Shown piece by piece: positions 1 through 11,886 of a DNA stretch of 11,886 nt (the first letter of the stretch is position 1; the number at the start of each line of letters is the position of its first letter). The notes under the pieces are model-generated. The model had not been told where the DNA came from. It searched no databases and saw nothing but the letters and a program-made list of their open reading frames with translations. The stretch comes from a virus. The position numbers and the translations under genes are program-made. The DNA is taken from the UHGV virus genome UHGV-0180981; one strand, given 5' to 3'.

Positions 1-76
1 GCGAAATCGGTAGACGCAGTTGATTCAAAATCAACCGTAGAAATACGTGCCGGTTCGAGTCCGGCCTTCGGCACCA
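1..76 (+). tRNA. leuX: tRNA-Leu (anticodon CAA), 3' portion; the first ~9 nt of the gene lie upstream of the window
   Basis: Sequence matches the recognised leuX tRNA from D-arm onward: anticodon loop with CAA at 26-28, long variable arm, T-arm GGTTCGAGTCC, acceptor 3' end GGCACCA ending at 76. Confidence 0.9.
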
Positions 77-77
77 A
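46..77 (+). repeat. Left copy of 32-bp direct repeat (tRNA 3' end; attL-like core)
   Basis: CGTGCCGGTTCGAGTCCGGCCTTCGGCACCAA is repeated exactly at 10288-10319; flanks diverge immediately outside the repeat. Confidence 0.8.
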
Positions 78-556
78 GTCACTAAATTCCTTACAATACA
101 GCTGGTTAGACGATTAAATCTGTCTCTTTTGCCTGTAAGAAATGCTCTGTTATGTCCCTTGAAAAAGCCGCTGTGGTTGATAGTGGTAATTGGGATGTTA
201 ACTCATAGCGGCGTGTCGTTCCAGGCGTCAAACACGTACTGACTCAACTTGAAAGCTATGACGTAGCCACCGTCTCTAAACAATCCCAAAAACTTTTAGT
301 GAAGCGCATTTTAGCCCGATGCCCCCGTTCTGTCGCCGTCGCGAGACGCCGCAGGGGATAAACAGGTTTATGGTGGTCACGGTACTTGCAGACCATATGC
401 AAGCTCTGCCAGCGGTTCGGCCTCGCTCCCCTTGGGTACATGGTCATCCTGATAAGCCTCACTAACTGACATAACCCTGATGAAGTCGCCAGAGGCTCCG
501 CTTGTTGTCTTACCACCAACGGGGCTTTATGGATTCTATTGCGGTATGTTTGAAAG

Positions 557-580
557 CGCGCGGGGGTTCATTCCCGCGCG
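557..580 (-). terminator. GC-rich hairpin 10 bp downstream of the 304-aa ORF stop (weak U-tract)
   Basis: CGCGCGGG (557-564) pairs with CCCGCGCG (573-580) around an 8-nt loop; on the minus strand only about 3 U follow, so intrinsic termination is uncertain. Confidence 0.35.
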
Positions 581-589
581 TCCGGCGCT

Positions 590-1504
590 TTATGGTAAGT
601 ATTTAAGTATTTCTGCTGCCCAGTTTACACGGTGGATGACACGGGCATGGTGCAAGTTTCCGTCTAGTATTTCGGCTTTAGTTAGCTGGGATAACTGCTG
701 CCAATTATTGTTAAGTATATAAGTTGCGTTATTACATTGTGAGCTTTCTAGCACGTAAATGTTTTGGCCTGTGAACCCAAATATCACGTAGCCTTGGAAC
801 CCAGCTTGCCCAACCGCTACGAAATCTGGTTTTTTACTATTGATAAGTTCAAGTCTGCCTTCAACAACAGCGGTATTGCCCTTTCCCCTGATCTTAATAG
901 CTGAAAGGATTTTTGAACCGATAGTACTCCAAGGCTGTTGACCCTGAGGCAGGAGGCTCCAGTTTAGTTTTATAGATTTACTTTTAACGATGGTATTAAG
1001 TTGGTCGTCAACAGTTTCGCACAACCCAAAAAGCTCTAAAAAAAGATTAATGCAGTGAGCCACTAACTCTTTGTTGTTAGCTGTCAAACTTAGCTTTGGA
1101 GAGATGATCAACTTCTCCCCTTGCAGATTCTCTACAATCTTTAACTCTATGCTTGGTGGAGGGGTGAGGATTCTCTTGTAGCGCTTATACTCAATTTCAC
1201 GAGTGTCAGTAACTTCTTGAGTTGCGCCCCCTCCGATCCATTGCTTTCTAGTCCATGAAATTTGTCTGTATGCAGTTTCTTTAGGTGCTGTTTTGTCAGG
1301 TACTGATTTGCCATTAGCATTGAATCTGGTTATTGGCCCTAAAATTTTGGGGAGGACTTCTTCACCTAAAGCTCTTTGACTTGAGAAACCAATAGAGTCC
1401 GTTTTCCCCGCATCTGGCAAAGAATGTGCAATGTAGATATCACGGCCATCAAAGTTAGGTATGTAATTATCAATATTTCGAATACGCTTTTTCTGAATAA
1501 GCAT
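590..1504 (-). CDS. Hypothetical protein, 304 aa, no recognisable family; AT-rich foreign-looking cargo gene
   Basis: Longest ORF in the AT-rich arm; ATG start with AGGAA about 8 nt upstream on the minus strand; hairpin follows the stop; no motifs recognised by eye. Confidence 0.6.
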   Translation of the reverse strand: MLIQKKRIRNIDNYIPNFDGRDIYIAHSLPDAGKTDSIGFSSQRALGEEVLPKILGPITRFNANGKSVPDKTAPKETAYRQISWTRKQWIGGGATQEVTDTREIEYKRYKRILTPPPSIELKIVENLQGEKLIISPKLSLTANNKELVAHCINLFLELFGLCETVDDQLNTIVKSKSIKLNWSLLPQGQQPWSTIGSKILSAIKIRGKGNTAVVEGRLELINSKKPDFVAVGQAGFQGYVIFGFTGQNIYVLESSQCNNATYILNNNWQQLSQLTKAEILDGNLHHARVIHRVNWAAEILKYLP

Positions 1505-1636
1505 GGATCGTTCCTTTTGATTTTATCTTACTGTTTACATAACCAACCAAGCCGGGCACAATCGAGCCGTTAGAAACGATAGTGAGGCTAACAATCGTTA
1601 TGAGTTTGCAGACTCATGGCGGTCATGCTTCATAGA

Positions 1637-1667
1637 CCGGATTCACGCAGGTGACTCCGGTTTTTTT
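1637..1667 (+). terminator. Rho-independent terminator (plus strand)
   Basis: CCGGA-T-TCAC / GTGA-C-TCCGG stem with 4-nt loop, followed by a run of 7 T (1661-1667). Confidence 0.55.
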
Positions 1668-2338
1668 ATGCCCATCATTTATACATGGGCACAACATATA
1701 GGGTGTGTTAATAAGATTACCCCCTACATGTTCAGCATTCTAGTTAGGATTCTTTGCAGTACAAGGGTTGATTTTGAGGTTAAATTGAGGTTGTCAAAGG
1801 GAAATTTCGACCAACCCTACGTGCCGTAAGGCTTAGGCTGTATGTCAATGTTTCAGAAAAAAAAATGAAAATTTGATCGAGTGCTGATTTCTTTAGCACG
1901 AGAACATGAGAACGAACCAAAATATTGCAAAGTTTTGAACAAAACTTGAACTGCCTCGTGTCTCCATAGCCAAGACGAATGCAGTTTAAATAAGCTAAGT
2001 CAGCTCTCAAAAGTCCTTTATGACCCGAACCAAAAAATGTACCTCTTAAACCCCACCGCAAGCGGCTCTCCGGGGTTTGTGCGCGTGGAGTAATGCGGTT
2101 GTACTGGGTATGTGCGCACAACCCTCTACAAGCCGCATTCTACCGTTAGCCTATAGCTGAATCCCCGGCTTGAAAAATTGTACGCTTATGGTTGCCCCTC
2201 CCTCAACTGTATAGCTCGCCCGCGCCCCCGTGCGCATGTGCGTGCCCGCGCGTCAGGGGTCGCTGAGAAAACCCTAAGATTTTGCTCATCCGAGACAACC
2301 GTTGCAGGCGCGTGTTGCCGAGGGCACACTGCTAGTGT

Positions 2339-2448
2339 TTGATGGTGTCATCAATCGTTCGATTTTTGCTACCTTCCTGAGTGATTACTATCTGGTGTCA
2401 TCAATTTAGGGTTTGACTAAATGCTACCACCAATGCAATGATGCTACC
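2339..2448. promoter_or_regulatory. Repeat cluster upstream of serine recombinase gene (candidate res/operator sites)
   Basis: TGGTGTCATCAAT exact direct repeat at 2343-2355 and 2393-2405; first copy sits in inverted repeat TTGATG-gtgt-CATCAA (2339-2354); TGCTACC three times (2367-2373, 2422-2428, 2442-2448). Confidence 0.4.
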
Positions 2449-2479
2449 GTTTTGTGATACCAGACGGGTGAGGTGAACC

Positions 2480-3055
2480 ATGAGGACTTTTATCTATTGC
2501 CGCGTTTCAACACGCGAGCAGGATACGCAGAATCAGGTGCTGGCTATTGAGCGTGCCGGGTATAAGGTGCCGGAGAGCAGGGTAATCAGTGAGGACATTT
2601 CCGGTAGCGTTCAGGCTATGCAGCGCCCTAAGTTTCGGGCGATGGTTGAGCATAAGCTGGAAGCGGGAGATCAGCTTGTCGTGCTGAAACTGGACAGGCT
2701 GGGGCGCGACAACATCGACGTGCAACAGACCATCGACATGCTGTTAGAACGTGGCGTGAAGGTGGTGTCTCTTGACCTGCCTGCGCGTGATCTGACTTCA
2801 TCTGAGGGCAAGCTAATCCGCCAGATGTTTGGAGCCTTTGCTGAGTTCGAGCGAAACCGTATCCGTGAGAGGACGCTTGACGGGCTGGAGAAGGCGAAAG
2901 CCAATGGCGTTAAGCTGGGACGCAAGGAAGCCACCGACACCACTCAAAAGGTGCAGGAGCTGCGGAGTGAGGGGCTGTCTCAATCGAAGGTAGCGAAGCG
3001 TCTCGGAGTTAGTGTGAGCACCGTTAAACGCCACTGGAACAAGGGCGAGGGGTGA
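2480..3055 (+). CDS. Small serine recombinase (resolvase/invertase family), 191 aa
   Basis: N-terminal YCRVSTREQ catalytic-serine motif, LKLDRLGRD motif, C-terminal HTH (SQSKVAKRLGVSVSTVKRH); GAGGTG RBS about 8 nt upstream of ATG. Confidence 0.92.
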   Translation: MRTFIYCRVSTREQDTQNQVLAIERAGYKVPESRVISEDISGSVQAMQRPKFRAMVEHKLEAGDQLVVLKLDRLGRDNIDVQQTIDMLLERGVKVVSLDLPARDLTSSEGKLIRQMFGAFAEFERNRIRERTLDGLEKAKANGVKLGRKEATDTTQKVQELRSEGLSQSKVAKRLGVSVSTVKRHWNKGEG

Positions 3056-3994
3056 TGACCTACAAGCGAACGAGGTGCTACGACTGGCCGTTACTGGGCT
3101 GTGGGTGATGGATTACCTACAGCTTTTGTATTTATTTCAGAGGGTTATGTTATGCTTAATATCATAACGATATGATTTATAATGTATTTTCGTGTTACTT
3201 GCGGCTCTTGATGTGAAGAGGTGGCGGGGCTTTAGCCGTGCCAGACGATGAACATCGAGATCAGATTGTGAATGTGATTTATCACTGAACAATTCAAGGG
3301 ATGGGGCAGGGGAAGGGATCAAAGGCTGCGTTGTCCAATCACTAAGCTAGATTTGAAGCTGGTGAACACGTTACTAGTATCTTTAAAGTTGCATTTAAAA
3401 TGCATGTACAAAAAAGGGTTCTTCCCTTACATCCCTTCTCCTAAATGTAGTTACGAGTGCTTCGCTCTCTTCACTTGCTGCGCTTCTCGCTATGCTCCAG
3501 CCCGCTCCATCGCCTTTGGCTCATTCCCGGTCTTCGCCCGCTGCTGATGCTCGGCCACTCTACGCAACCGTGCTTGCCGTGGCAGGCAACGCGGCGGGAA
3601 GGTGTAGTGGTACGGTACTATGTATCGGTATTATTAATGTATTCAATCACATACTGTTATCAGTAGGTATCCTTCAAAACATCTTCATCCATTTCTGTAT
3701 CATTCAATCATCTTTCTTGTTCGTTTCCTTTCAGGTCTTAGCCGTTGTTCATTGGTCTTACTGCCTGCTGTGCTACTGCCAGCTATGGCACGCCGTTACG
3801 GTCTACTGTGTCACCTGTCCTACTGCGTTCACTGTCTGCCGTCTGTCATCCTGTCGGATTCCATCCGTCATCCGTTCCGCGCTCGCTTGTTTCGGCTGCG
3901 CCGCGCTCGCTCTGCGTATCTAGCGATACTCTATCACTATAGACACTTTCATAATTATCTAATGATTACAGTAACTTATATTTTTAATTTTAAA

Positions 3995-4255
3995 GGCTAC
4001 TAATAAGGAGATATAGAGCATTACTTTCCCGCTTTTGACCGACAAAAATCGCGTTGTTAAGTATTGCCAGCCCAGGCCCAGTAAGGCTTAGCGAGGTGGT
4101 GGTTAAAAATTGACCTAATGAAAGTATCTACTAAGGAGAAAGAATAACTCCCGAAGCGAGACAAACTCTCCGATTTTGAAAGTGACTATTAAGGCAGATA
4201 AAGACACTGACACTGTTGCCGACATGAAAACCTCTATAAGGGCAGAGAGTCTGCC
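3995..4255 (+). repeat. Four degenerate direct repeats (iteron/operator-like), core CTAnTAAGG(n)AGA
   Basis: Copies at 3995-4019, 4124-4150, 4182-4209, 4231-4255, all in the same orientation in non-coding DNA upstream of the helicase-led array. Confidence 0.5.
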
Positions 4256-4316
4256 GCACCTGTACCACCGCCCCAACCTGAGCTAATACCTACCCCTATT
4301 TTCTGGAGATTTCACC

Positions 4317-6161
4317 ATGCCAACAAACCTACGCCGCCTGCTTGCGCAGGCTGCCGACGCTGACCCGCTCAATACTGCGGACGCAGATGTACAGCAAATG
4401 ATCGCTGACGGGACTGTTATTCGACGTTCCAAGATATGCCCCGTAAAGCGTAAACCCGTTAAGGCGGCATACAACACAAAGACCGAAGAGTTTTATTACA
4501 ATGCTGATGGTTCCGCTATGACCCTGCGGGAGTGGCGAACGCTGCACGGTGTTCAACCGAAGAAGCAAAAACAGCGCTCTGACGCTGGGTTGCGGCAAGT
4601 CATCCAGCCCGGCGACGCGATTCACTGTCGACGCGCTGAGATTGAGCAATGGCTAAATAAAAAGCCTGCTCGTTATGTTGAACCACTGCCGCCAGATTTC
4701 CCCGGCGTTCGCGTAGACGAGGCTGCATTGAAACCGCGCGAGCACGCCGTGCCGGAATCAACAACCGGACAGAATGCTTTTCTCAAAGCCTGCCGCGAGT
4801 TTCTGATTTGCGACGAGAAGACCATGCGCCGCATTAACAGGGGCATGAATAAACTGGAAGCGATGCGCAATACAGATTTCAAACGCTACGGGAACTCAGC
4901 GGAGTTTCGTCAATTGTGGTGTGGAGAGTCGAAACCTACCGAGGATAAATTTAACAGTACAAATCATCATTGTGACCCGAACGGCTTGGCTGCATCGCCG
5001 TCTATGCCGTCACTGAATACTGTGCCGTATGAGTTCCGTCCGCTGGTTCGCTGTGACCGAAACGCACGCGTCAGCCTGCTGCCACCCGATGGGCTGGAGT
5101 GGAGGCCGGGACAGTTGTCTGTTGCTGATGCGATCTTTACCCGTGGTAGGGATGTGCTTGCCGTACTGCCGACCGGGTATGGCAAAAGCGCCGCCTTCAC
5201 TTATCCACTGATTTATGAGTCCCGCGCTGGCATTGGCCTGTCTGTAATCGTGGTTCCTACTAATACCCTTAAGCGTCAGATTCTCCGCCAGTTGCGGGAG
5301 GCTGGCATTCACGCCGTGGCCTTTGGCGATAAGCTACCGAGGCACCGCAACGCACAACAACTGGCGGGACTAGCAGCCGGGGCGTTCCGGCTTGCTGTTG
5401 TTTCGCCTGAACATCTGGTTCCGTCGAGTCAGGTTCTCGCGGCGCTGATGGCTTATGGCGTTGATCGTTTTATTATCGATGAGGCACACACGGTCAAAGA
5501 CTGGGATTTCCGCCCAGCTTACGACGCAATGCAGCACACACTACAGAATGCTTTTCCCTCGGCTCAACGTTGCGTGTTTACGGCTACTCTACTACGTGAA
5601 AATGAGCGCGGTTTAATGGAGGCGCTGGGGTGCCGTGGCAATTACGTCACATTCCGTGCTGATGTTGCTCGCGAGCATATCCAGTTGATTCCGGTCAGGC
5701 AGTGCCGCGAACGTTTCCGAGCGGCTATTGGTCTGGTCGAGGCTCTGCCGAAAGAAGAGAAGACGCTTATTCTCGTCAATGACCTTAAAACGTTGCGGGC
5801 GTACCTGAAACTCTTGGGCGACCGGGCGCGGCCATATCACTCGAAGACGATGCACCTGAGCAACGAGGAACGCCACGCAAACGCTGAGTGGTTTGCCTCT
5901 ACGCCGGGCGCGATTCTTATTGCTACTAAAGCCTTCGGGCTGGGTGCTGATGTTCCTGATATCCGTAACGTTGTCGTGACATACGTCCCCGATGATTTGC
6001 CTGATCTCGTTCAGATGATTGGACGAGCCGGGCGCGATGGGGAACCTGCCCGCGCTTTTCTGCTGTGGTCATCGCTGGCGCTGGATGTTGCGCCTGATGA
6101 GCTTGCTTACTTCTACCGCCCTGAAAACTGCAACTGGCAGTACATCGCTAAATACCTCTGA
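4317..6161 (+). CDS. RecQ-like superfamily 2 DEAH helicase with uncharacterised ~270-aa N-terminal domain, 614 aa
   Basis: Motif I LPTGYGKS, Ia VIVVPTNTL, II IIDEAHTV with DWDFRPAY, III FTATL, VI GRAGRDG; ends about 45 aa after motif VI, so no RQC/HRDC; GGAG RBS. Confidence 0.9.
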   Translation: MPTNLRRLLAQAADADPLNTADADVQQMIADGTVIRRSKICPVKRKPVKAAYNTKTEEFYYNADGSAMTLREWRTLHGVQPKKQKQRSDAGLRQVIQPGDAIHCRRAEIEQWLNKKPARYVEPLPPDFPGVRVDEAALKPREHAVPESTTGQNAFLKACREFLICDEKTMRRINRGMNKLEAMRNTDFKRYGNSAEFRQLWCGESKPTEDKFNSTNHHCDPNGLAASPSMPSLNTVPYEFRPLVRCDRNARVSLLPPDGLEWRPGQLSVADAIFTRGRDVLAVLPTGYGKSAAFTYPLIYESRAGIGLSVIVVPTNTLKRQILRQLREAGIHAVAFGDKLPRHRNAQQLAGLAAGAFRLAVVSPEHLVPSSQVLAALMAYGVDRFIIDEAHTVKDWDFRPAYDAMQHTLQNAFPSAQRCVFTATLLRENERGLMEALGCRGNYVTFRADVAREHIQLIPVRQCRERFRAAIGLVEALPKEEKTLILVNDLKTLRAYLKLLGDRARPYHSKTMHLSNEERHANAEWFASTPGAILIATKAFGLGADVPDIRNVVVTYVPDDLPDLVQMIGRAGRDGEPARAFLLWSSLALDVAPDELAYFYRPENCNWQYIAKYL

Positions 6162-6198
6162 GTCGAAAGGCTCTCCCTGATTCTCTGGAGTTAATCAT

Positions 6199-6636
6199 AT
6201 GCCTGTTACCGAACATGCGCAGCGTCGTGCTGCGCGTGCGGATGCGCTCATCACCGCACAACTAGCCTTCGCCCTGAATGGGTACAACTGGGATGAACTG
6301 GCCGAACCTCATCGCAAGACCCTTAATCGTGAGGCCATCATTCGCGAGGTATCTACACCGCTGGAGCGATATTGCCTGCTGAATGATTGCGAGCCGTGGG
6401 AGTGTCTGGCCGCTGTACTGAACCGCATGAAAAGGCCGGATGGCTCGCGTCGCTGGAAAGCCGTCCGTTTGTCCGACCGGGTTTTCAATGGCCGAGTGCA
6501 TCCAGTGCGCAAAACGCCTGATGAAGTTTACGCCGCCATTGCCCGCCGCTTGTTCCTGCCGAAGCCCGTGCATCAAGAAGTGATACAGCACATCCGTGCG
6601 CTTGGCTTGTTACCAATTGGAGACAACCACCAATGA
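6199..6636 (+). CDS. Hypothetical protein, 145 aa
   Basis: GGAG RBS 9 nt upstream; 37 bp after helicase stop; stop overlaps next start (ATGA). Confidence 0.6.
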   Translation: MPVTEHAQRRAARADALITAQLAFALNGYNWDELAEPHRKTLNREAIIREVSTPLERYCLLNDCEPWECLAAVLNRMKRPDGSRRWKAVRLSDRVFNGRVHPVRKTPDEVYAAIARRLFLPKPVHQEVIQHIRALGLLPIGDNHQ

Positions 6637-6842
6637 CGAAATCTGAATTTGAAAATGAAACATGGCGAATGAAGGGCTTGCTTCTTGGGGCGCTGATTCG
6701 CCGCCTTGAGGAAGATAAGGCTGGCGAGTCGCGCATGGTCGCAGCGGAGTTATCCAGTGCGGTCAACTTCCTTAAGGCCAACGCCGTAGAAGCGCCGGAC
6801 ACATCATTCAACAACGTGTTCCCGGAGGATGACGAGCAATGA
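6633..6842 (+). CDS. Hypothetical small protein, 69 aa
   Basis: ATGA overlap with upstream and downstream genes; GGAGA RBS. Confidence 0.55.
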   Translation: MTKSEFENETWRMKGLLLGALIRRLEEDKAGESRMVAAELSSAVNFLKANAVEAPDTSFNNVFPEDDEQ

Positions 6843-7015
6843 CCCCTGAACAATTCAGACAATGGTTCGCCACGCTGCCACCGAACTATCAGAGCACCGC
6901 ACGCACCATGTACGACAACGCCCGCAAGTCGGGCACACATACCGCGTCAAGCCTTGCGCTGATTCACACGTTGGTTACTGACCAGATCAAATTTGATTCG
7001 GAGTTTAATTTATGA
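6839..7015 (+). CDS. Hypothetical small protein, 58 aa (below the ORF-track length cutoff)
   Basis: Translated by hand: ATG at 6839 overlaps upstream stop (ATGA), stop at 7013-7015 overlaps next start at 7012 (ATGA); GGAGGA RBS about 9 nt upstream. Confidence 0.45.
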   Translation: MTPEQFRQWFATLPPNYQSTARTMYDNARKSGTHTASSLALIHTLVTDQIKFDSEFNL

Positions 7016-7575
7016 CTTTGAGTATTACCGATATCCAGCGCATTAACGCGCTGGCTCATAAGCACCTAAAGAACAATGAAGAGATTGCAGCGGAGACAGG
7101 TCATACCCTGACCGATATTGATGCTGTAATCCGTGGCGTCTATGTCGATGACTTGGCCGAACATTGGAAAGACGATGCTGATATTACTCTGGCGGAGTAC
7201 AACGCCATCCGCAGCCGCTATAAGCCCGGCAAGCTGCACCGCGATACAGAGTTTATGATTGCCCGCGATATGCTGATTCGCCCTGAGACTGTGCTGGCTA
7301 TCGCCCATTCCCGCTTTAGCAACGTCCACACTCACCCAGTGCCGAAAGCCGTCAAAGCAAAGCCGGAGAAAGCGAAAGTAGTGCGCAAGTTGGTGCCTAC
7401 TGATTTAGATGAAATTCACAAGTTAGAGCGCTTCGGTTGGCCTGCTGCGGAGATCGCCGGGAAGCTGGGCGTCCCTGTTGAGGTCGTCGCGCATGTGCAA
7501 CGCTGCCTGAGAAATCGTTGGTCGTACCCGGATACTCTGGAGTCTGTTAACTCCAAATTCAGCGAGGCTGAATGA
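7012..7575 (+). CDS. Hypothetical protein with putative HTH motifs, 187 aa
   Basis: GGAG RBS 8 nt upstream; HTH-like segments near N-terminus and in LERFGWPAAEIAGKLGVPVEVV; ATGA overlap at both ends. Confidence 0.6.
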   Translation: MTLSITDIQRINALAHKHLKNNEEIAAETGHTLTDIDAVIRGVYVDDLAEHWKDDADITLAEYNAIRSRYKPGKLHRDTEFMIARDMLIRPETVLAIAHSRFSNVHTHPVPKAVKAKPEKAKVVRKLVPTDLDEIHKLERFGWPAAEIAGKLGVPVEVVAHVQRCLRNRWSYPDTLESVNSKFSEAE

Positions 7576-7808
7576 TGGCAGAGAACGAACCTCTGCACCC
7601 CGCCGTTAACCCTGATCTCTACGTGAACCTTGACGAACAACGTGAAGGATACGCCCCGTTTGAATCACGCGGCTGGGATGTTCTGACAAAGAACCTGTCC
7701 GGGGAAGGGCGAACTGACCCCGGCCAAATGCTTAACCAGAATCCGAAACAACGCCCGCGCGGCTCCGTTGGTGAGCGTCGTTGGCTTCGTAAACGTGGAT
7801 TACTTTAA
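7572..7808 (+). CDS. Hypothetical small protein, 78 aa
   Basis: Start overlaps upstream stop (ATGA); basic C-terminus. Confidence 0.5.
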   Translation: MMAENEPLHPAVNPDLYVNLDEQREGYAPFESRGWDVLTKNLSGEGRTDPGQMLNQNPKQRPRGSVGERRWLRKRGLL

Positions 7809-7820
7809 CGAGGAATTACC

Positions 7821-8060
7821 ATGAGCAAAACTATCGTATTGCTGCCGCCACGCAAGAATACAGACTGGGCTGCGCAATTAAAGCTGATTTCTGAATCGCT
7901 TGAGGTGAGTCAGGCAGACCTCGCCCGCGCCTATCAGGTTGATCGTCGGGATATGGGTAAAGCGTATCACGGTGTGCGCAAACTGCCGGAACGTTGTGTG
8001 CCTGTTCATATGCTGTTGTTAGCGCAGGTACACGACTTTAGAGCATTATCAGGAGAATAA
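7821..8060 (+). CDS. Cro/YdaS-like HTH DNA-binding protein, 79 aa
   Basis: GAGG RBS; HTH followed by LPERC motif (SQADLARAYQV...GVRKLPERCVPV) resembling phage Cro/YdaS-type regulators. Confidence 0.6.
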   Translation: MSKTIVLLPPRKNTDWAAQLKLISESLEVSQADLARAYQVDRRDMGKAYHGVRKLPERCVPVHMLLLAQVHDFRALSGE

Positions 8061-8063
8061 TTT

Positions 8064-8744
8064 ATGTCTGACCAGAATGTTAATCCGTACCTTTCCGGTG
8101 CTGATACTGCATCGCAGCAATCGCCGTACATGGCTGCACCTGTTGGCGCTGACAATGGCGCATCCCGCTTTAGCTCTGCGCCTGCTGATGCTGATTTCCT
8201 CCGTACCCAACCCGTTAACGGTAATGATGGCGGCCAATGGAATAATGGCAGTATCGCGAATCAGCAGGATCAGAACGCTGACAGCGCCGGGGCGCAGGTG
8301 GGCGATACTATCTCCCTGATGGATGGAACAGCTATTGAGTACACCGCCGAGCTGCAAGGATTGATGGGACAGTTTCATCAGTCTGTCGAAAGCCAGCTAG
8401 GGCAAGGGACAGTTGACGCTATGTTGCAGTACGCTGGCACGCTCGATGCCGGGACGCAATCGACCCTTGAACGGATGGTTATGTCTGGCGACCCTGCGCA
8501 GATGCAGCGAGCCGTTCAGTATCTGCAAGAGAGGATGGCTGGCGGTTCCATTACCGGTTACGTCCCGAACGGCCAGACTGCCGCGCAACCTGTCGGAATG
8601 TCACATGCTGAGTTTATAGCAGCGTATGACCAGCTTTCGCAGTGGGCGCAGCAATCAGGGTATGGCCCCGGCCATCGCCAGTACGACGAACAATACCGCG
8701 CTCTGGTTGCGCAGCGCTCCGCTGGCAAACGTGCTGGCCGCTAA
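8064..8744 (+). CDS. Hypothetical protein, 226 aa, low-complexity N-terminal half, helical C-terminal half
   Basis: AGGAGA RBS 8 nt upstream; starts 3 nt after previous stop. Confidence 0.6.
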   Translation: MSDQNVNPYLSGADTASQQSPYMAAPVGADNGASRFSSAPADADFLRTQPVNGNDGGQWNNGSIANQQDQNADSAGAQVGDTISLMDGTAIEYTAELQGLMGQFHQSVESQLGQGTVDAMLQYAGTLDAGTQSTLERMVMSGDPAQMQRAVQYLQERMAGGSITGYVPNGQTAAQPVGMSHAEFIAAYDQLSQWAQQSGYGPGHRQYDEQYRALVAQRSAGKRAGR

Positions 8745-8861
8745 CACCCAACGGTGGAATGCGCCCTGCAAGACTGAGTGCGCACCAACCCGGTACTACC
8801 ACACCAATCTATGCGCATGAGTCCCCGCAAGCCGTATTCTGCGCGGCATCTGAAAGCCTGT

Positions 8862-8887
8862 TTTTAATTAACCGAGGTTCGTAATGA
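8862..8887. promoter_or_regulatory. hix/gix-like 26-bp site with core AACCGAGGTT
   Basis: Core 8870-8879 is the gix crossover-region sequence; each flanking half-site matches the hix half-site consensus at about 8/12; overlaps the ATG at 8884. Confidence 0.25.
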
Positions 8888-9297
8888 GTACCTGTAATTT
8901 CCATGCCGTGGAGCGTGTCGCTGACGTGCGCCCGGATTTCGCCTTGCCGCTGGGTAGATGCGATCACATTTACCCTGAGCGTGTGCAGCACGTTTTCAAT
9001 CCAGACGAGGCGGTTTATATCGTTGCCCGGTCTGCCACATCCGGCACCCGCACATCTGGCGTTAGCCGTGGGCTTTCCCCTGTGCTGCCGCCGAAGATGG
9101 CCGAGCGCATGCGCGAACGTGAACGGCACGAGAAGAATCGAGCCAGACCCCGCAATGTGATCACTGAGGCAGTACGCGCTGACATTATCGAGCGCTCTGC
9201 AAAAGGTCAGAAGAATCGTTACATTGCAAGCAAGGTTGGTGTGTCTGAAACCTCTGTGCGGAAGGTGTTGAACATGGCGCGTATGAGTGCGCACTAA
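8884..9297 (+). CDS. DNA-binding protein with C-terminal Hin/resolvase-type HTH, 137 aa
   Basis: C-terminal RPRNVITEAVRADIIERSAKGQKNRYIASKVGVSETSVRKVL resembles the Hin DNA-binding domain; no catalytic domain; true start may be an internal Met. Confidence 0.55.
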   Translation: MSTCNFHAVERVADVRPDFALPLGRCDHIYPERVQHVFNPDEAVYIVARSATSGTRTSGVSRGLSPVLPPKMAERMRERERHEKNRARPRNVITEAVRADIIERSAKGQKNRYIASKVGVSETSVRKVLNMARMSAH

Positions 9298-9493
9298 TGC
9301 AAGGTAATACGTTCGCCTTACTTCACGCGCATTAACCCCTGAGAACCGCGCCAGCTCTGGCCTCAAAACGCCCATTCGGGGCACCTCATCCCTTTAATCG
9401 ATACCGTTCTGAATCCTGCCTCGGCGGGAGGATTCCGCACGTCTGTGCCATGACGATGGCGCGGGCTTCATCAACCTATGTAGGAGTTTTGTT

Positions 9494-9991
9494 ATGGCTG
9501 ATACTTCGTACAGTCCCGATCTGTTTCGCCCACACTATGGCGGGGTGGAATCCGACAATGATATTCACATCGAGGCTTATGACCGGGACATCCAGACCCG
9601 TTTAGAGTCCAAATCTGTATTTCTGGCCGAGGGGCTGTCTACATACAGGCCGCTGAAAGCCAGCAACCAATATCGTGTTGATCGCCTGAGTGGTGATCTG
9701 GAGGTGAAGGGCAGAGCCGCAGGGCAATCGCTGGAGCATACCGCCGTTAAGTCGGACAAGCTGATTATCTCTGTGGATACGCTGAGCTATCTCCGCATCC
9801 CGATTGACTATCAGGAGGACTGGACAGCACCCACTTTTCGCTCAGAGCTGAGCCGCAATATGGGTACTGCTCACGCTAAATTCTACGACGAAGCGCACAC
9901 CATCCAGCTAATCAAAGCGACTGACTTTGTATCGCCGCCGACACTGCAACCAACGTTTAACCCACTAAGCGAGTCCATTCCAGAGCAATAG
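9494..9991 (+). CDS. Hypothetical protein, 165 aa; possibly an N-terminal fragment of a T7-like major capsid protein
   Basis: AGGAG RBS 8 nt upstream; by-eye resemblance to T7 gp10 N-terminal region (LF...GG, ED...RSExxxxxGxxxA); ORF ends at about half normal capsid length. Confidence 0.55.
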   Translation: MADTSYSPDLFRPHYGGVESDNDIHIEAYDRDIQTRLESKSVFLAEGLSTYRPLKASNQYRVDRLSGDLEVKGRAAGQSLEHTAVKSDKLIISVDTLSYLRIPIDYQEDWTAPTFRSELSRNMGTAHAKFYDEAHTIQLIKATDFVSPPTLQPTFNPLSESIPEQ

Positions 9992-10154
9992 CATCCCGAA
10001 ACAATCGCGCTTGGCGTACATCGCGTGTCCCTGTGCTTTTCATAAAGTAGCGCTTCCCTTGGAACAGGTGGCGCATGTAGTTGGGGATAGCTATCCGCAC
10101 GAGGTAATTCCCGCAGGGATCTAAAACTAGATAACGATCTCTCTTGAAACTCAT
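9957..10154 (-). pseudogene. Tyrosine integrase N-terminal remnant (about 65 codons)
   Basis: YLVRIAIPNYMRHLFQGKRYFMKSTGTRDVRQARLFRDAIALEWTRL fits the integrase N-terminal arm-binding pattern; stops after 65 codons, no catalytic domain; sits about 130 bp inside the right repeat. Confidence 0.35.
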
Positions 10155-10159
10155 ACAAA

Positions 10160-10185
10160 CCCCGGTTATGTTGTCGGGGCTTTTT
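10160..10185 (+). terminator. Rho-independent terminator (plus strand) near right end of island
   Basis: CCCCG (10160-10164) pairs with CGGGG (10175-10179), optionally extended by a G-U pair, followed by 5 T (10181-10185). Confidence 0.5.
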
Positions 10186-10287
10186 CATGGCTAAACAGTC
10201 TGTGAAATGTGCCGGGGTCATGAGCTTTAGTCTAGCTAGTTCAACAAGTTAACGATGATTGTTGAAGCAAGCTAAGTCGCTATAACC

Positions 10288-10319
10288 CGTGCCGGTTCGA
10301 GTCCGGCCTTCGGCACCAA
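10288..10319 (+). repeat. Right copy of 32-bp direct repeat (attR-like; partial tRNA 3' end only)
   Basis: Identical to 46-77; upstream sequence does not match the tRNA body. Confidence 0.8.
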
Positions 10320-10333
10320 AAGATGCAAATCAA

Positions 10334-10357
10334 AGTCGCTTAAGGGCGGCTTTTTTT
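10334..10357 (+). terminator. Rho-independent terminator, probably the native leuX terminator displaced by the insertion
   Basis: AGTCGC/GCGGCT stem (one G-U pair), 6-nt loop, 7 T (10351-10357), immediately after the right repeat; no equivalent follows the tRNA at 77. Confidence 0.6.
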
Positions 10358-10714
10358 GTGTCTGAAATACACGTAAAGTTTTCCTTTCAACGGAAGACAA
10401 TCTGATTCAGCCAATATCAAATTTCTTATAAGTATAGAACAGAATATATTCTCATTCGATAATTGTCATATTTGTGCATAAGCTTTCCGGTGATTTTGAA
10501 AGGTTATTTGTCTTAGCCTGACGCTTTCCGCTTTATCCTGGAAAAGGAATGTCTGCTGTCCCGCATGGTTTAAACATCTCACATCTGCTGTAACGAACCT
10601 CAAACTTTCTCCATCATTGATTAACTTGCTGTGATTTTGGTCATTGCTCGGGAAGCTTCAGAAAGTTAAAGTAAAAATTATGTTCCTAAAATGTATGCGC
10701 AGGCCTGCATAACA

Positions 10715-11886
10715 ATGATGAATAAATCCAATTTTGAGTTCCTGAAGGGCGTCAACGATTTCACCTATGCCATTGCATGTGCGGCGGAAAATAACTACCC
10801 GGATGATCCCAATACTGCGCTGGTAAAAATGCGTATGTTTGGCGAAGCGACGGCAAAACATCTTGGTCTGCTGCTGGATATTCCTCCCTGTGAAAATCAG
10901 CACGAACTCCTGCGTGAGCTTGGAAAAATTGCCTTCGTTGACGACAGCATTCTTTCCGTGTTCCATAAATTACGTCGTATTGGTAACCAGGCTGTCCACG
11001 AATACCATAACGATCTTGATGATGCTCAGATGTGCTTACGGCTAGGTTTTCGGCTGGGCGTCTGGTACTACCGTTTGGTTACGAAAGATTATGACTTCCC
11101 TGTGCCTGTTTTTGTTTTACCGGAGCGCGGAGAAAATCTTTACCGTCAGGAAGTACTGACGTTAAAACAAAAGCTAGAAGAGCAGTCACGTGAGAAAGCA
11201 CTCAGTCAGGCTGAACTCGAAGCACAGCAGCAGAAACTGATTGCTCTGAACGGTTATATTGCCATTCTTGAAGGTAAGCAGCAGGAAACTGAAGCACAGA
11301 CATTGGCTCGTTTCTCAGCACTGGAAGCGCAGTTAGCTGAGAAAAATGCGAAGCTGGCTAAGCTCACGGAACAGGAAAGAAAAGCCTACCATAAAGAAAT
11401 TACCGACCAGGCCGTCAAGCGTACACTGAATCTCAGTGAAGAGGAGAGTCGCTTCCTGATTGACGCTCAGTTACGTAAAGCGGGTTGGCAGGCGGATAGT
11501 AAAATGCTGCGCTTTGCCAAAGGTGCTCGCCCGGAACCGGGTATTAATAAAGCGATTGCCGAATGGCCTACGGGCGTAGATGAAACGGGTAAGCAAGGAT
11601 TTGCGGATTATGTTCTGTTCGTTGGCCTCAAGCCCATCGCCGTTGTCGAAGCAAAACGTAAAAATATTGATGTTCCCGGCAAGCTGAATGAGGCTTATCG
11701 ATACAGTAAATATTTCGATAATGCGTTTTTGCGCGATACGCTTCTGGAGCAATTTACCCCCGACGATATACACGAAACCCTACCGGTTTACGAAATCAGC
11801 TGGCAAGATACCAGCGGCACACAGCGTTTTAAAATCCCCTTTTGCTACTCCACCAACGGGCGTGAATACCGCGCGGCAATGAAGAC
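10715..11886 (+). CDS. hsdR: Type I restriction enzyme R subunit (HsdR, EcoKI-like), N-terminal ~390 codons; continues past window end
   Basis: Hand translation from ATGATG at 10715 is open to the window end; N-terminus MMNKSNFEFLKGVNDFTYAIACAAENNYPDDPNTAL matches the recognised EcoKI-family HsdR N-terminus; coiled-coil Q/E/A-rich segment. Confidence 0.9.
   Translation, partial: MMNKSNFEFLKGVNDFTYAIACAAENNYPDDPNTALVKMRMFGEATAKHLGLLLDIPPCENQHELLRELGKIAFVDDSILSVFHKLRRIGNQAVHEYHNDLDDAQMCLRLGFRLGVWYYRLVTKDYDFPVPVFVLPERGENLYRQEVLTLKQKLEEQSREKALSQAELEAQQQKLIALNGYIAILEGKQQETEAQTLARFSALEAQLAEKNAKLAKLTEQERKAYHKEITDQAVKRTLNLSEEESRFLIDAQLRKAGWQADSKMLRFAKGARPEPGINKAIAEWPTGVDETGKQGFADYVLFVGLKPIAVVEAKRKNIDVPGKLNEAYRYSKYFDNAFLRDTLLEQFTPDDIHETLPVYEISWQDTSGTQRFKIPFCYSTNGREYRAAMK

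Follow-up and report, generated by a model that had tools for sequence, protein, structure and literature searches.

Nucleotides 2344–3055 of the 11,886-nucleotide stretch analyzed here (from virus genome UHGV-0180981; hereafter, the window) very probably form a self-contained, autoregulated resolution module of the Tn3 type on a phage-satellite-like island inserted at leuX. The module would combine a small serine recombinase with a predicted res site immediately upstream of its gene. It would work like Tn3 res on an island and is not part of a Tn3-family transposon; it is filed outside these transposons because it is accompanied by no transposon and because its site III is a direct rather than an inverted repeat. 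As judged from sequence comparison, the module belongs to the island backbone in several island families and many genera. Its elements in the window are the following.

2344–2373, plus strand: site I, the predicted crossover site, an inverted repeat of 14 + 2 + 14 bp, GGTGTCATCAATCG-TT-CGATTTTTGCTACC
2358–2359: central dinucleotide of site I, TT
2374–2393: spacer between sites I and II, 20 bp
2394–2428, plus strand: site II, a predicted accessory site, a 35-bp inverted repeat of 14 + 7 + 14 bp, GGTGTCATCAATTT-AGGGTTT-GACTAAATGCTACC
2413–2442, plus strand: predicted sigma-70 promoter of the recombinase gene (consensus scan)
2429–2434: spacer between sites II and III, 6 bp
2435–2461, plus strand: site III, a predicted accessory site with half-sites GCAATGATGCTACC and CGTTTTGTGATACC, head-to-tail, with starts 13 bp apart
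2480–3055, plus strand: gene of the small serine recombinase (resolvase type), 191 aa (Pfam; identical to WP_001258716.1)
3096–3125, plus strand: terminator-like hairpin followed by a T-run (consensus scan)

The recombinase and its predicted res site

The recombinase harbors an N-terminal catalytic domain (Pfam Resolvase, E = 8e-37, residues 4–144) and a C-terminal HTH domain (HTH_7, E = 3e-8, residues 147–188), which is the domain order of serine recombinases of ~180–210 aa. The intact reading frame and the two domains agree with the preliminary description of this locus, which had recognized a recombinase of the resolvase/invertase class. Among solved structures, the closest relatives are the gamma-delta resolvase (E = 5e-23, 38% identity) and the Tn3 resolvase (E = 8e-22), with both of which the alignment spans the full length; the corresponding values are 2e-16 for the Gin invertase and 3e-9 for Sin. 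Residues Y6, R8, S10, Q14, the equivalent of R45, D67, R68, and R71 are invariant in an alignment of 12 sequences that includes the gamma-delta resolvase.

The regulatory (R, or “2-3 prime”) interface of the Tn3 resolvase involves R2, R32, K54, and E56, residues that the accessory-site synaptosome needs (PMC9943657). They correspond to R2, R34, K59, and E61 in the window protein. The interface is largely kept across the clade; two members have Q or R instead of K59. Its residues are not conserved in an E. coli paralog of 47% identity. Relative to close relatives, the gene carries 11–27 synonymous and 1–4 non-synonymous codon differences, a ratio of ~8:1 from which it is concluded that the gene is maintained by selection. 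No papers mentioning the protein accessions were found in the literature.

Three sequence features upstream of the gene had been pointed out in the preliminary description: an exact 13-bp direct repeat, three copies of TGCTACC, and an inverted repeat with 6-bp arms. The first is confirmed, TGGTGTCATCAAT occurring exactly at 2343–2355 and 2393–2405; neither strand of the 11.9-kb window has a further match with two or fewer mismatches, of which 0.26 would be expected per window. The three TGCTACC copies, starting at 2367, 2422, and 2442, are likewise the only ones on both strands of the window. Their count is by itself unremarkable, at least three copies being present in 37 of 200 shuffles, and what sets them apart is their clustering within 82 bp. 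The inverted repeat TTGATG/CATCAA is present at 2339–2354 but is not conserved, with GCTTTGGTGTCATCAA in its place in E2348/69 and others. Since it is not kept in close relatives, the palindrome is considered incidental and was rejected as a functional element. The meaningful dyads are instead AATCG-TT-CGATT (2353–2364), which lies within site I, and the pair formed by 2391–2400 and 2455–2464.

GGTAGCA is the reverse complement of TGCTACC, GGTGTCA is contained in the 13-mer, and a sixth element, TGATACC (2455–2461), reads GGTATCA on the opposite strand. Because GGTGTCA, GGTAGCA, and GGTATCA match across strands, the six elements are assigned to one half-site family; as far as their sequence tells, the TGCTACC copies repeat the half-site of the 13-mers in the reverse orientation, a relation that the preliminary description had not noted. 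A position-weight scan (PWM) built from the six half-sites ranks them as the top six matches of the window, at 12.5–17.3 bits, and no match above 10.8 bits is found elsewhere in the window.

The six half-sites make up three predicted subsites over 118 bp (2344–2461), the 3′ end of which is 18 bp before the ATG. A region of this extent (~110–120 bp), with three dimer subsites directly upstream of the gene, is characteristic of res. Both halves of site I are PWM matches, and the layout is kept in 12 loci. The centers of sites I and II, at 2358.5 and 2411, are 52.5 bp apart, equivalent to approximately five helical turns. The subsites are not uniformly inverted pairs of 12-bp motifs, as site III is head-to-tail in all lineages examined. 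A 25–28 bp inverted repeat was considered for site III and rejected, because the head-to-tail reading holds in all lineages; the putative left arm of the inverted reading is poor in most of them. With six half-sites, three subsites, and the comparative support detailed below, the multi-subsite res region suspected in the preliminary description is upheld as a prediction.

The predicted promoter comprises a −35 element TTGACT (2413–2418), an 18-nt spacer, and a TG-extended −10 element AATGAT (2437–2442). It is embedded in sites II and III, and it is the sole upstream promoter-like match in a consensus scan; a TTGAC-like −35 element is found at equal alignment columns in most lineages. The locus had initially been offered as either a res site or an autoregulatory operator, and both are likely to be true, because the site cluster overlaps the predicted promoter of the gene, as in Tn3 and gamma-delta. 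The hairpin at 3096–3125 would make the recombinase gene a single-gene unit. Farther downstream, the 1.26 kb between the recombinase and a helicase gene (3056–4316) is devoid of gene annotation. An AT-rich segment with strong promoter-like sites (3136–3183) lies there, as does an unannotated 143-aa reading frame (3492–3923) that has no Pfam or PHROG match; the stretch is 85–92% identical in some relatives up to ~3637 and variable further on.

Conservation of the layout and likeness to known systems

Orthologs with 61–72% identity are found in Dryocola, Pantoea, Halomonas, Vibrio (two loci), Plesiomonas, and Citrobacter, and a paralog with 43–47% identity is common in E. coli. A co-linear res layout lies upstream of all these orthologs and of the E. 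coli paralogs, 12 loci altogether. Homologs lacking the repeats had been named at the outset as an observation that would speak against the proposed site; the homologs carry the same layout upstream. The 35-bp geometry of site II is repeated in Dryocola, Pantoea, Vibrio, Plesiomonas, and E. coli (L024). The direct-repeat order and spacing of site III recur in all lineages, each with a core sequence of its own.

The layout was assessed by a fixed-offset test, in which the 7-mer cores of site I alone were sought at +36, +64, +84, and +97 with a slack of at most 3 bp. In the window, 27 of 28 positions match across the four downstream half-sites. The scores out of 28 are 28 for Dryocola, 27 for Pantoea, 24 for Halomonas, 28 and 21 for two Vibrio loci (L034 and L007, respectively), and 27 for Plesiomonas, such that seven of the ten loci tested score 21–28. 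Random placements in the same loci yield 14.8 ± 1.7, with a maximum of 21. Because the site I 7-mer predicts the four other half-sites at fixed offsets, the cluster exceeds chance. The Citrobacter locus (L008) and the E. coli paralog loci L024 and L026 score 17–19, which is ascribed to a different register of the conserved core. In the seven lineages of the window's recombinase clade, HS3 lies at +36 (±1 bp) from the center of site I. The fixed-offset test supersedes a per-locus motif enrichment by mononucleotide shuffling, a measure too weak alone that was significant for the window, Dryocola, and UTI89 only.

The core differs by lineage, being GGTGTCA/GGTAGCA, GGTATCA, AGTATCA, or TAGGTCA in orthologs and CTGGCA in the paralog, and it changes jointly at all subsites of a lineage. 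The 47%-identical paralog, which has the most divergent core (CTGGCA), also differs in its recognition helix. A third subfamily of small serine recombinases, found in strain E1739, follows the same plan, with a three-subsite region of its own built on TCTCAAAA cores. Such lineage-wise co-variation is the pattern expected of sites that are bound by the product of the adjacent gene.

Tn3 res measures 114 bp and has three dimer sites (PMC2602789), and Tn3-like res sites in general span ~120 bp, with three subsites of which I and II are ~5 helical turns apart (PMC12217951). The window module shares with Tn3 and gamma-delta a small serine recombinase with a C-terminal HTH and the same catalytic and R-interface residues, a res directly upstream of the gene with three dimer sites and ~53 bp between the centers of I and II, a gene-distal site I with gene-proximal accessory sites, and a promoter within res (here predicted) that implies autoregulation. 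It differs from them in that there is no transposase or transposon end and the host is a tRNA-integrated island with a tyrosine integrase. Furthermore, the half-sites of site III are head-to-tail here and inverted there, the sites measure 30, 35, and 27 bp as opposed to 28, 34, and 25 bp, and the central dinucleotide is TT, which is non-palindromic.

A precedent is SGI1, in which a Tn3-like res upstream of the res gene was experimentally shown to remove island multimers (Veress, Szabo, Kiss 2025, PMC12217951). Both systems have a three-subsite res, a small resolvase gene, an integrative island, and variable cargo adjoining. SGI1 represents another island family, integrates at trmE rather than leuX, and relies on a helper IncC plasmid, whereas the helper of the leuX island is presumably a phage. 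The SGI1 res is 107 bp long, and all of its boxes are treated as dyads. An accessory subsite with direct-repeat half-sites is known from site II of Sin (PMC9943657), and the window res resembles the Sin/beta-type res of Gram-positive plasmids in having one such subsite. However, the res of Sin contains two recombinase subsites (I inverted, II direct) and a site for a DNA-bending protein (HU/IHF/Hbsu), while the window has three recombinase subsites, only the last of which is direct, and shows no sign of a host-factor site, and its protein is much nearer to the gamma-delta resolvase (E = 5e-23 versus 3e-9 for Sin). The window system thus falls outside the Sin/beta type.

The leuX island and related elements

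The window begins inside tRNA-Leu(CAA), with an Rfam match at 1–73; Rfam returned nothing in the window beyond this tRNA fragment. A direct repeat of 31–32 bp is common to window 46–76, window 10288–10319, and positions 33347–33377 of the corresponding locus of E. coli KFu019 (L001), and window 1–9968 is identical to the leuX island of KFu019. The island features of the window are given below.

46–76, plus strand: attL core, formed by the 3′ end of tRNA-Leu(CAA), with a second copy at the island's right end
541–2343: variable cargo slot, bounded by the conserved attL-proximal stretch and by res
590–1504, minus strand: 304-aa gene in the cargo slot
10288–10319, plus strand: attR core, preceded by a tyrosine integrase remnant (9966–10287)

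In KFu019 and E2348/69, the intact island occupies ~15 kb between 31-bp repeats of the tRNA end. Read from the left, the variable cargo slot comes first, then res with the recombinase gene; genes for a DEAD-box helicase, for a number of small products, for a phage major head protein (phrog_267, E = 7e-67), and for an HNH endonuclease follow, and further cargo precedes a 401-aa tyrosine integrase. The part from window position 4317 onward corresponds to L001 22218–30044 and L002 13973–21819. The helicase has an uncharacterized 260-aa N-terminal region, and a second endonuclease is encoded besides the HNH enzyme. The intact island has neither a portal nor a large terminase, and it looks like an undescribed type of phage satellite. 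Literature searches turned up nothing specific, whether for the island, for its satellite family, or for serine recombinases next to defense hotspots; what came up was general, for instance that the small serine recombinases of pipolins are presumed resolvases. The earlier judgment that the enzyme is too small to be the island integrase is borne out by the related islands, in which the 401-aa tyrosine integrase sits at the far end; the window retains only a remnant of it.

The window island is a deletion derivative. Its identity to KFu019 ends at 9968, inside the major head protein gene, such that the reading frame at 9494–9991 is a truncated capsid and half of the capsid gene is lost. Homology restarts in the initial portion of the tyrosine integrase gene, where identity is 90% (window 9966–10319, compared with L001 27869–33501). 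Approximately 5.2 kb of the KFu019 island are absent, including the HNH gene, the R-M cargo, and most of the integrase, and the window copy is therefore probably unable to excise. The flanking hsdR is 82% identical to E. coli hsdR.

Within the left part of the island, homology to the islands of E2348/69, LR-33, and Trabulsiella ends at ~526–542 and restarts at 2343/2344, which delimits the cargo slot. PADLOC found no match for the 304-aa cargo gene of the window. The module occupies the same place in the islands of Escherichia, Trabulsiella, Kluyvera, and Enterobacter. It is also found in compact leuX, thrW, and tRNA-Gly islets with a 636-aa integrase, in comM/yifB islands with a large serine integrase (Vibrio, Halomonas), and in AlpA-integrase islands (Plesiomonas); related modules are present in Pantoea and Dryocola islands.

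The cargo directly adjoining res includes Gabija, an AbiU-like gene, PDC-M04A, R-M systems, and toxin genes. In sister islets, the slot beside res (4793–8892 in L025, UTI89 thrW; 7782–9557 in L028; 3693–4463 in L030) holds known or candidate anti-phage systems, namely Gabija GajA/GajB, an AbiU-like AIPR protein, and PDC-M04A. Strain E1739 (L039 9891–27700) has three integrase-bearing elements in tandem at leuX. The first of these carries an Eco29kI-type R-M system, Kiwa (KwaAB), and the third-subfamily recombinase in the opposite orientation. In strain N9 (L029 5214–6207), the cassette equivalent to window 2313–3048 is swapped for an unrelated serine recombinase of 209 aa whose upstream region differs, and the island is otherwise homologous and satellite-like. 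This swap suggests that the position requires some serine recombinase.

Mosaic junctions, proposed mechanism, and alternative readings

The E. coli islands L024 and L026 are 98–100% identical over more than 1.1 kb through the central AC of site I, and 58–80% identical just past it. In L003 (CFSAN061761), a window-type left arm extends through the left half of site I and, right of the center, is followed by a paralog-type right half-site, recombinase, and right arm. UTI89 (L025) and L024 differ leftwards from the same site I center. Jointly, the three mosaic junctions are confined to the 4 bp CGAC at the dyad center of site I, which suggests natural crossover at this position in related E. coli islands.

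The L003 element (5978–11576) is a 5.6-kb leuX islet without an integrase, in which the window-type left arm is joined to the right arm of an islet with the 636-aa integrase (int636 type). Approximately 130 complete E. coli genomes appear to carry an islet of the L003 type, the match covering the first 258 query bases only. Since tandem islands, each with such a recombinase, occur at leuX in strain E1739, the L003 type plausibly arose by deletion between two res sites. A caveat is that the L003 hybrid joins a TT-centered parental type to an AC-centered one; because a serine recombinase should not ligate mismatched overlaps, either the L003 parent differed or another mechanism was at work.

The cargo junctions between the window and E2348/69, and between the Vibrio loci L034 and L036, are on the outer edge of site I and not at its center, and they are not explained by resolvase crossover at the center. 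Unrelated cargo starts at 2343/2344 in the window and ~15 bp left of the site I center in L034 and L036, which in two unrelated lineages is 1–2 bp from the outer edge of the left half of site I. These cargo starts may reflect selection that keeps res intact or targeted insertion beside res.

A broader proposal, advanced tentatively and doubtful as it stands, is that the module represents a large uncharacterized clade of island-borne resolvases with a hybrid res (two inverted subsites and one head-to-tail), whose crossover site is a natural arm-exchange hub for unrelated islands, the integrase-less 5.6-kb leuX islet of ~130 E. coli genomes being one product. If this were true, phage-satellite-like elements, defense islets, and comM islands would trade arms, including anti-phage cargo.

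For the Tn3-like resolution module itself, binding, strand exchange, repression, and the biological substrate are deduced as follows. Recombinase dimers would bind site I (inverted), site II (inverted and five helical turns away), and site III (head-to-tail). When two res copies are in direct repeat on one supercoiled molecule, as in an excised-island dimer, in tandemly arranged copies of the island, or where two related islands lie side by side at one tRNA gene, the accessory sites would intertwine, and the subunits bound at site I would cut and exchange strands at the central TT (2358–2359). Multimers would thereby be split, or the DNA between two islands deleted. As the −35 and −10 elements of the predicted promoter lie within sites II and III, the recombinase would also repress its own gene. 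In the window, where the integrase and half of the capsid gene are lost, the module may be without a substrate.

It is unlikely that the repeats serve as an operator only and that the protein is an autoregulator or island regulator that has lost recombination. Such a role would accord with the position of the predicted −35 and −10 elements within subsites II and III, the intact HTH domain, and an island in the window that no longer appears able to excise. On the other hand, the catalytic and R-interface residues are all conserved across lineages, the dyad and spacing of site I are those of a crossover site, on whose center sister-island junctions fall, and six half-sites in five-turn phasing would be needless for a mere repressor.

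Very unlikely is a selected function in cargo swapping, in which site I recombination would take place between different islands, brought together as circles or by a common tRNA site, and res would become a hub for trading defense-gene arms. The three mosaic junctions at the site I center, the Gabija, AbiU-like, PDC-M04A, and R-M cargo beside res in many islands, and the existence of tandem islands are compatible with it. Yet the topological selectivity of a three-subsite res disfavors intermolecular events (PMC9943657), several cargo junctions are on the outer edge of site I and off its center, and ordinary resolution between tandem islands could produce such junctions as a by-product.

The preliminary description had suggested a remnant of a nested transposon or of a plasmid resolution system. 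This reading, in which the transposon would be of the Tn3 family and the remnant in decay, did not hold and is judged highly improbable, even though the nearest solved relatives are transposon resolvases and the layout is Tn3-like. Neither the ten reading frames run on Pfam nor the island's RefSeq annotation revealed a transposase, and annotated terminal inverted repeats are likewise absent; the hosts are islands inserted at tRNA genes or comM, with tyrosine or large serine integrases, rather than Tn3-family transposons. The reading frame is intact and under ~8:1 purifying selection, and the module is a conserved part of the backbone, at the same island position in Escherichia, Trabulsiella, Kluyvera, and Enterobacter, with related modules in other island families. 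By megablast, no plasmid with the module was found, the sole match in the plasmid collection being a 111-bp flank in a 4.9-Mb record; the phage collection gave no match.

Least probable of all is a DNA invertase of the Hin/Gin/Pin type that flips a segment to switch expression: the best PHROG match is phrog_125, named “DNA invertase” (E = 5e-55), some sources annotate relatives as “Pin-like,” the superfamily and domain order are shared, and the half-sites are likewise A-rich and ~12 bp long, TAGCAAAAATCG perhaps resembling hix half-sites, but solved resolvases outscore Gin, the NCBIfam invertase model reaches 73.6 bits against a cutoff of 272 bits, accessory recombinase sites are present, with three subsites beside the gene as in resolvases, the left arm has one orientation at all loci examined, and neither an inverted partner of site I (pattern and PWM, in the window or the surrounding 41 kb of KFu019) nor an invertible segment (in the window or KFu019) is found. 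The search for a partner site elsewhere, proposed in the preliminary description, gave none in the window or KFu019. Scans of both window strands and of 15.6 kb of the intact KFu019 island detected no second crossover site, and no second res copy exists in the window or, at megablast level, in the KFu019 genome, the 1.1-kb region being present at one place per genome. The KFu019 capsid gene contains one isolated 14-mer that resembles a half-site (L001 28268); this 14-mer lacks a dyad partner and does not occur in the window. The operator-only, transposon-relic, and invertase readings are thus disfavored because each is contradicted by specific results.

As an already known kind of system with SGI1 as precedent, a resolvase acting on res does not overturn current understanding. 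The Tn3-like resolution module replaces the bare annotation “recombinase family protein,” which is used in hundreds of E. coli genomes and many Gammaproteobacteria, with a specific, testable model that supplies base-level coordinates for a crossover site, accessory sites, and a predicted promoter. The lineage-specific half-sites, set against near-identical protein scaffolds, could serve as orthogonal recombinase/site pairs. The model suggests that small integrative islands and satellite-like elements commonly have their own multimer-resolution module, which has so far been shown for SGI1 only, and that crossover at res contributes to the mosaicism of defense-carrying islands at tRNA hotspots.
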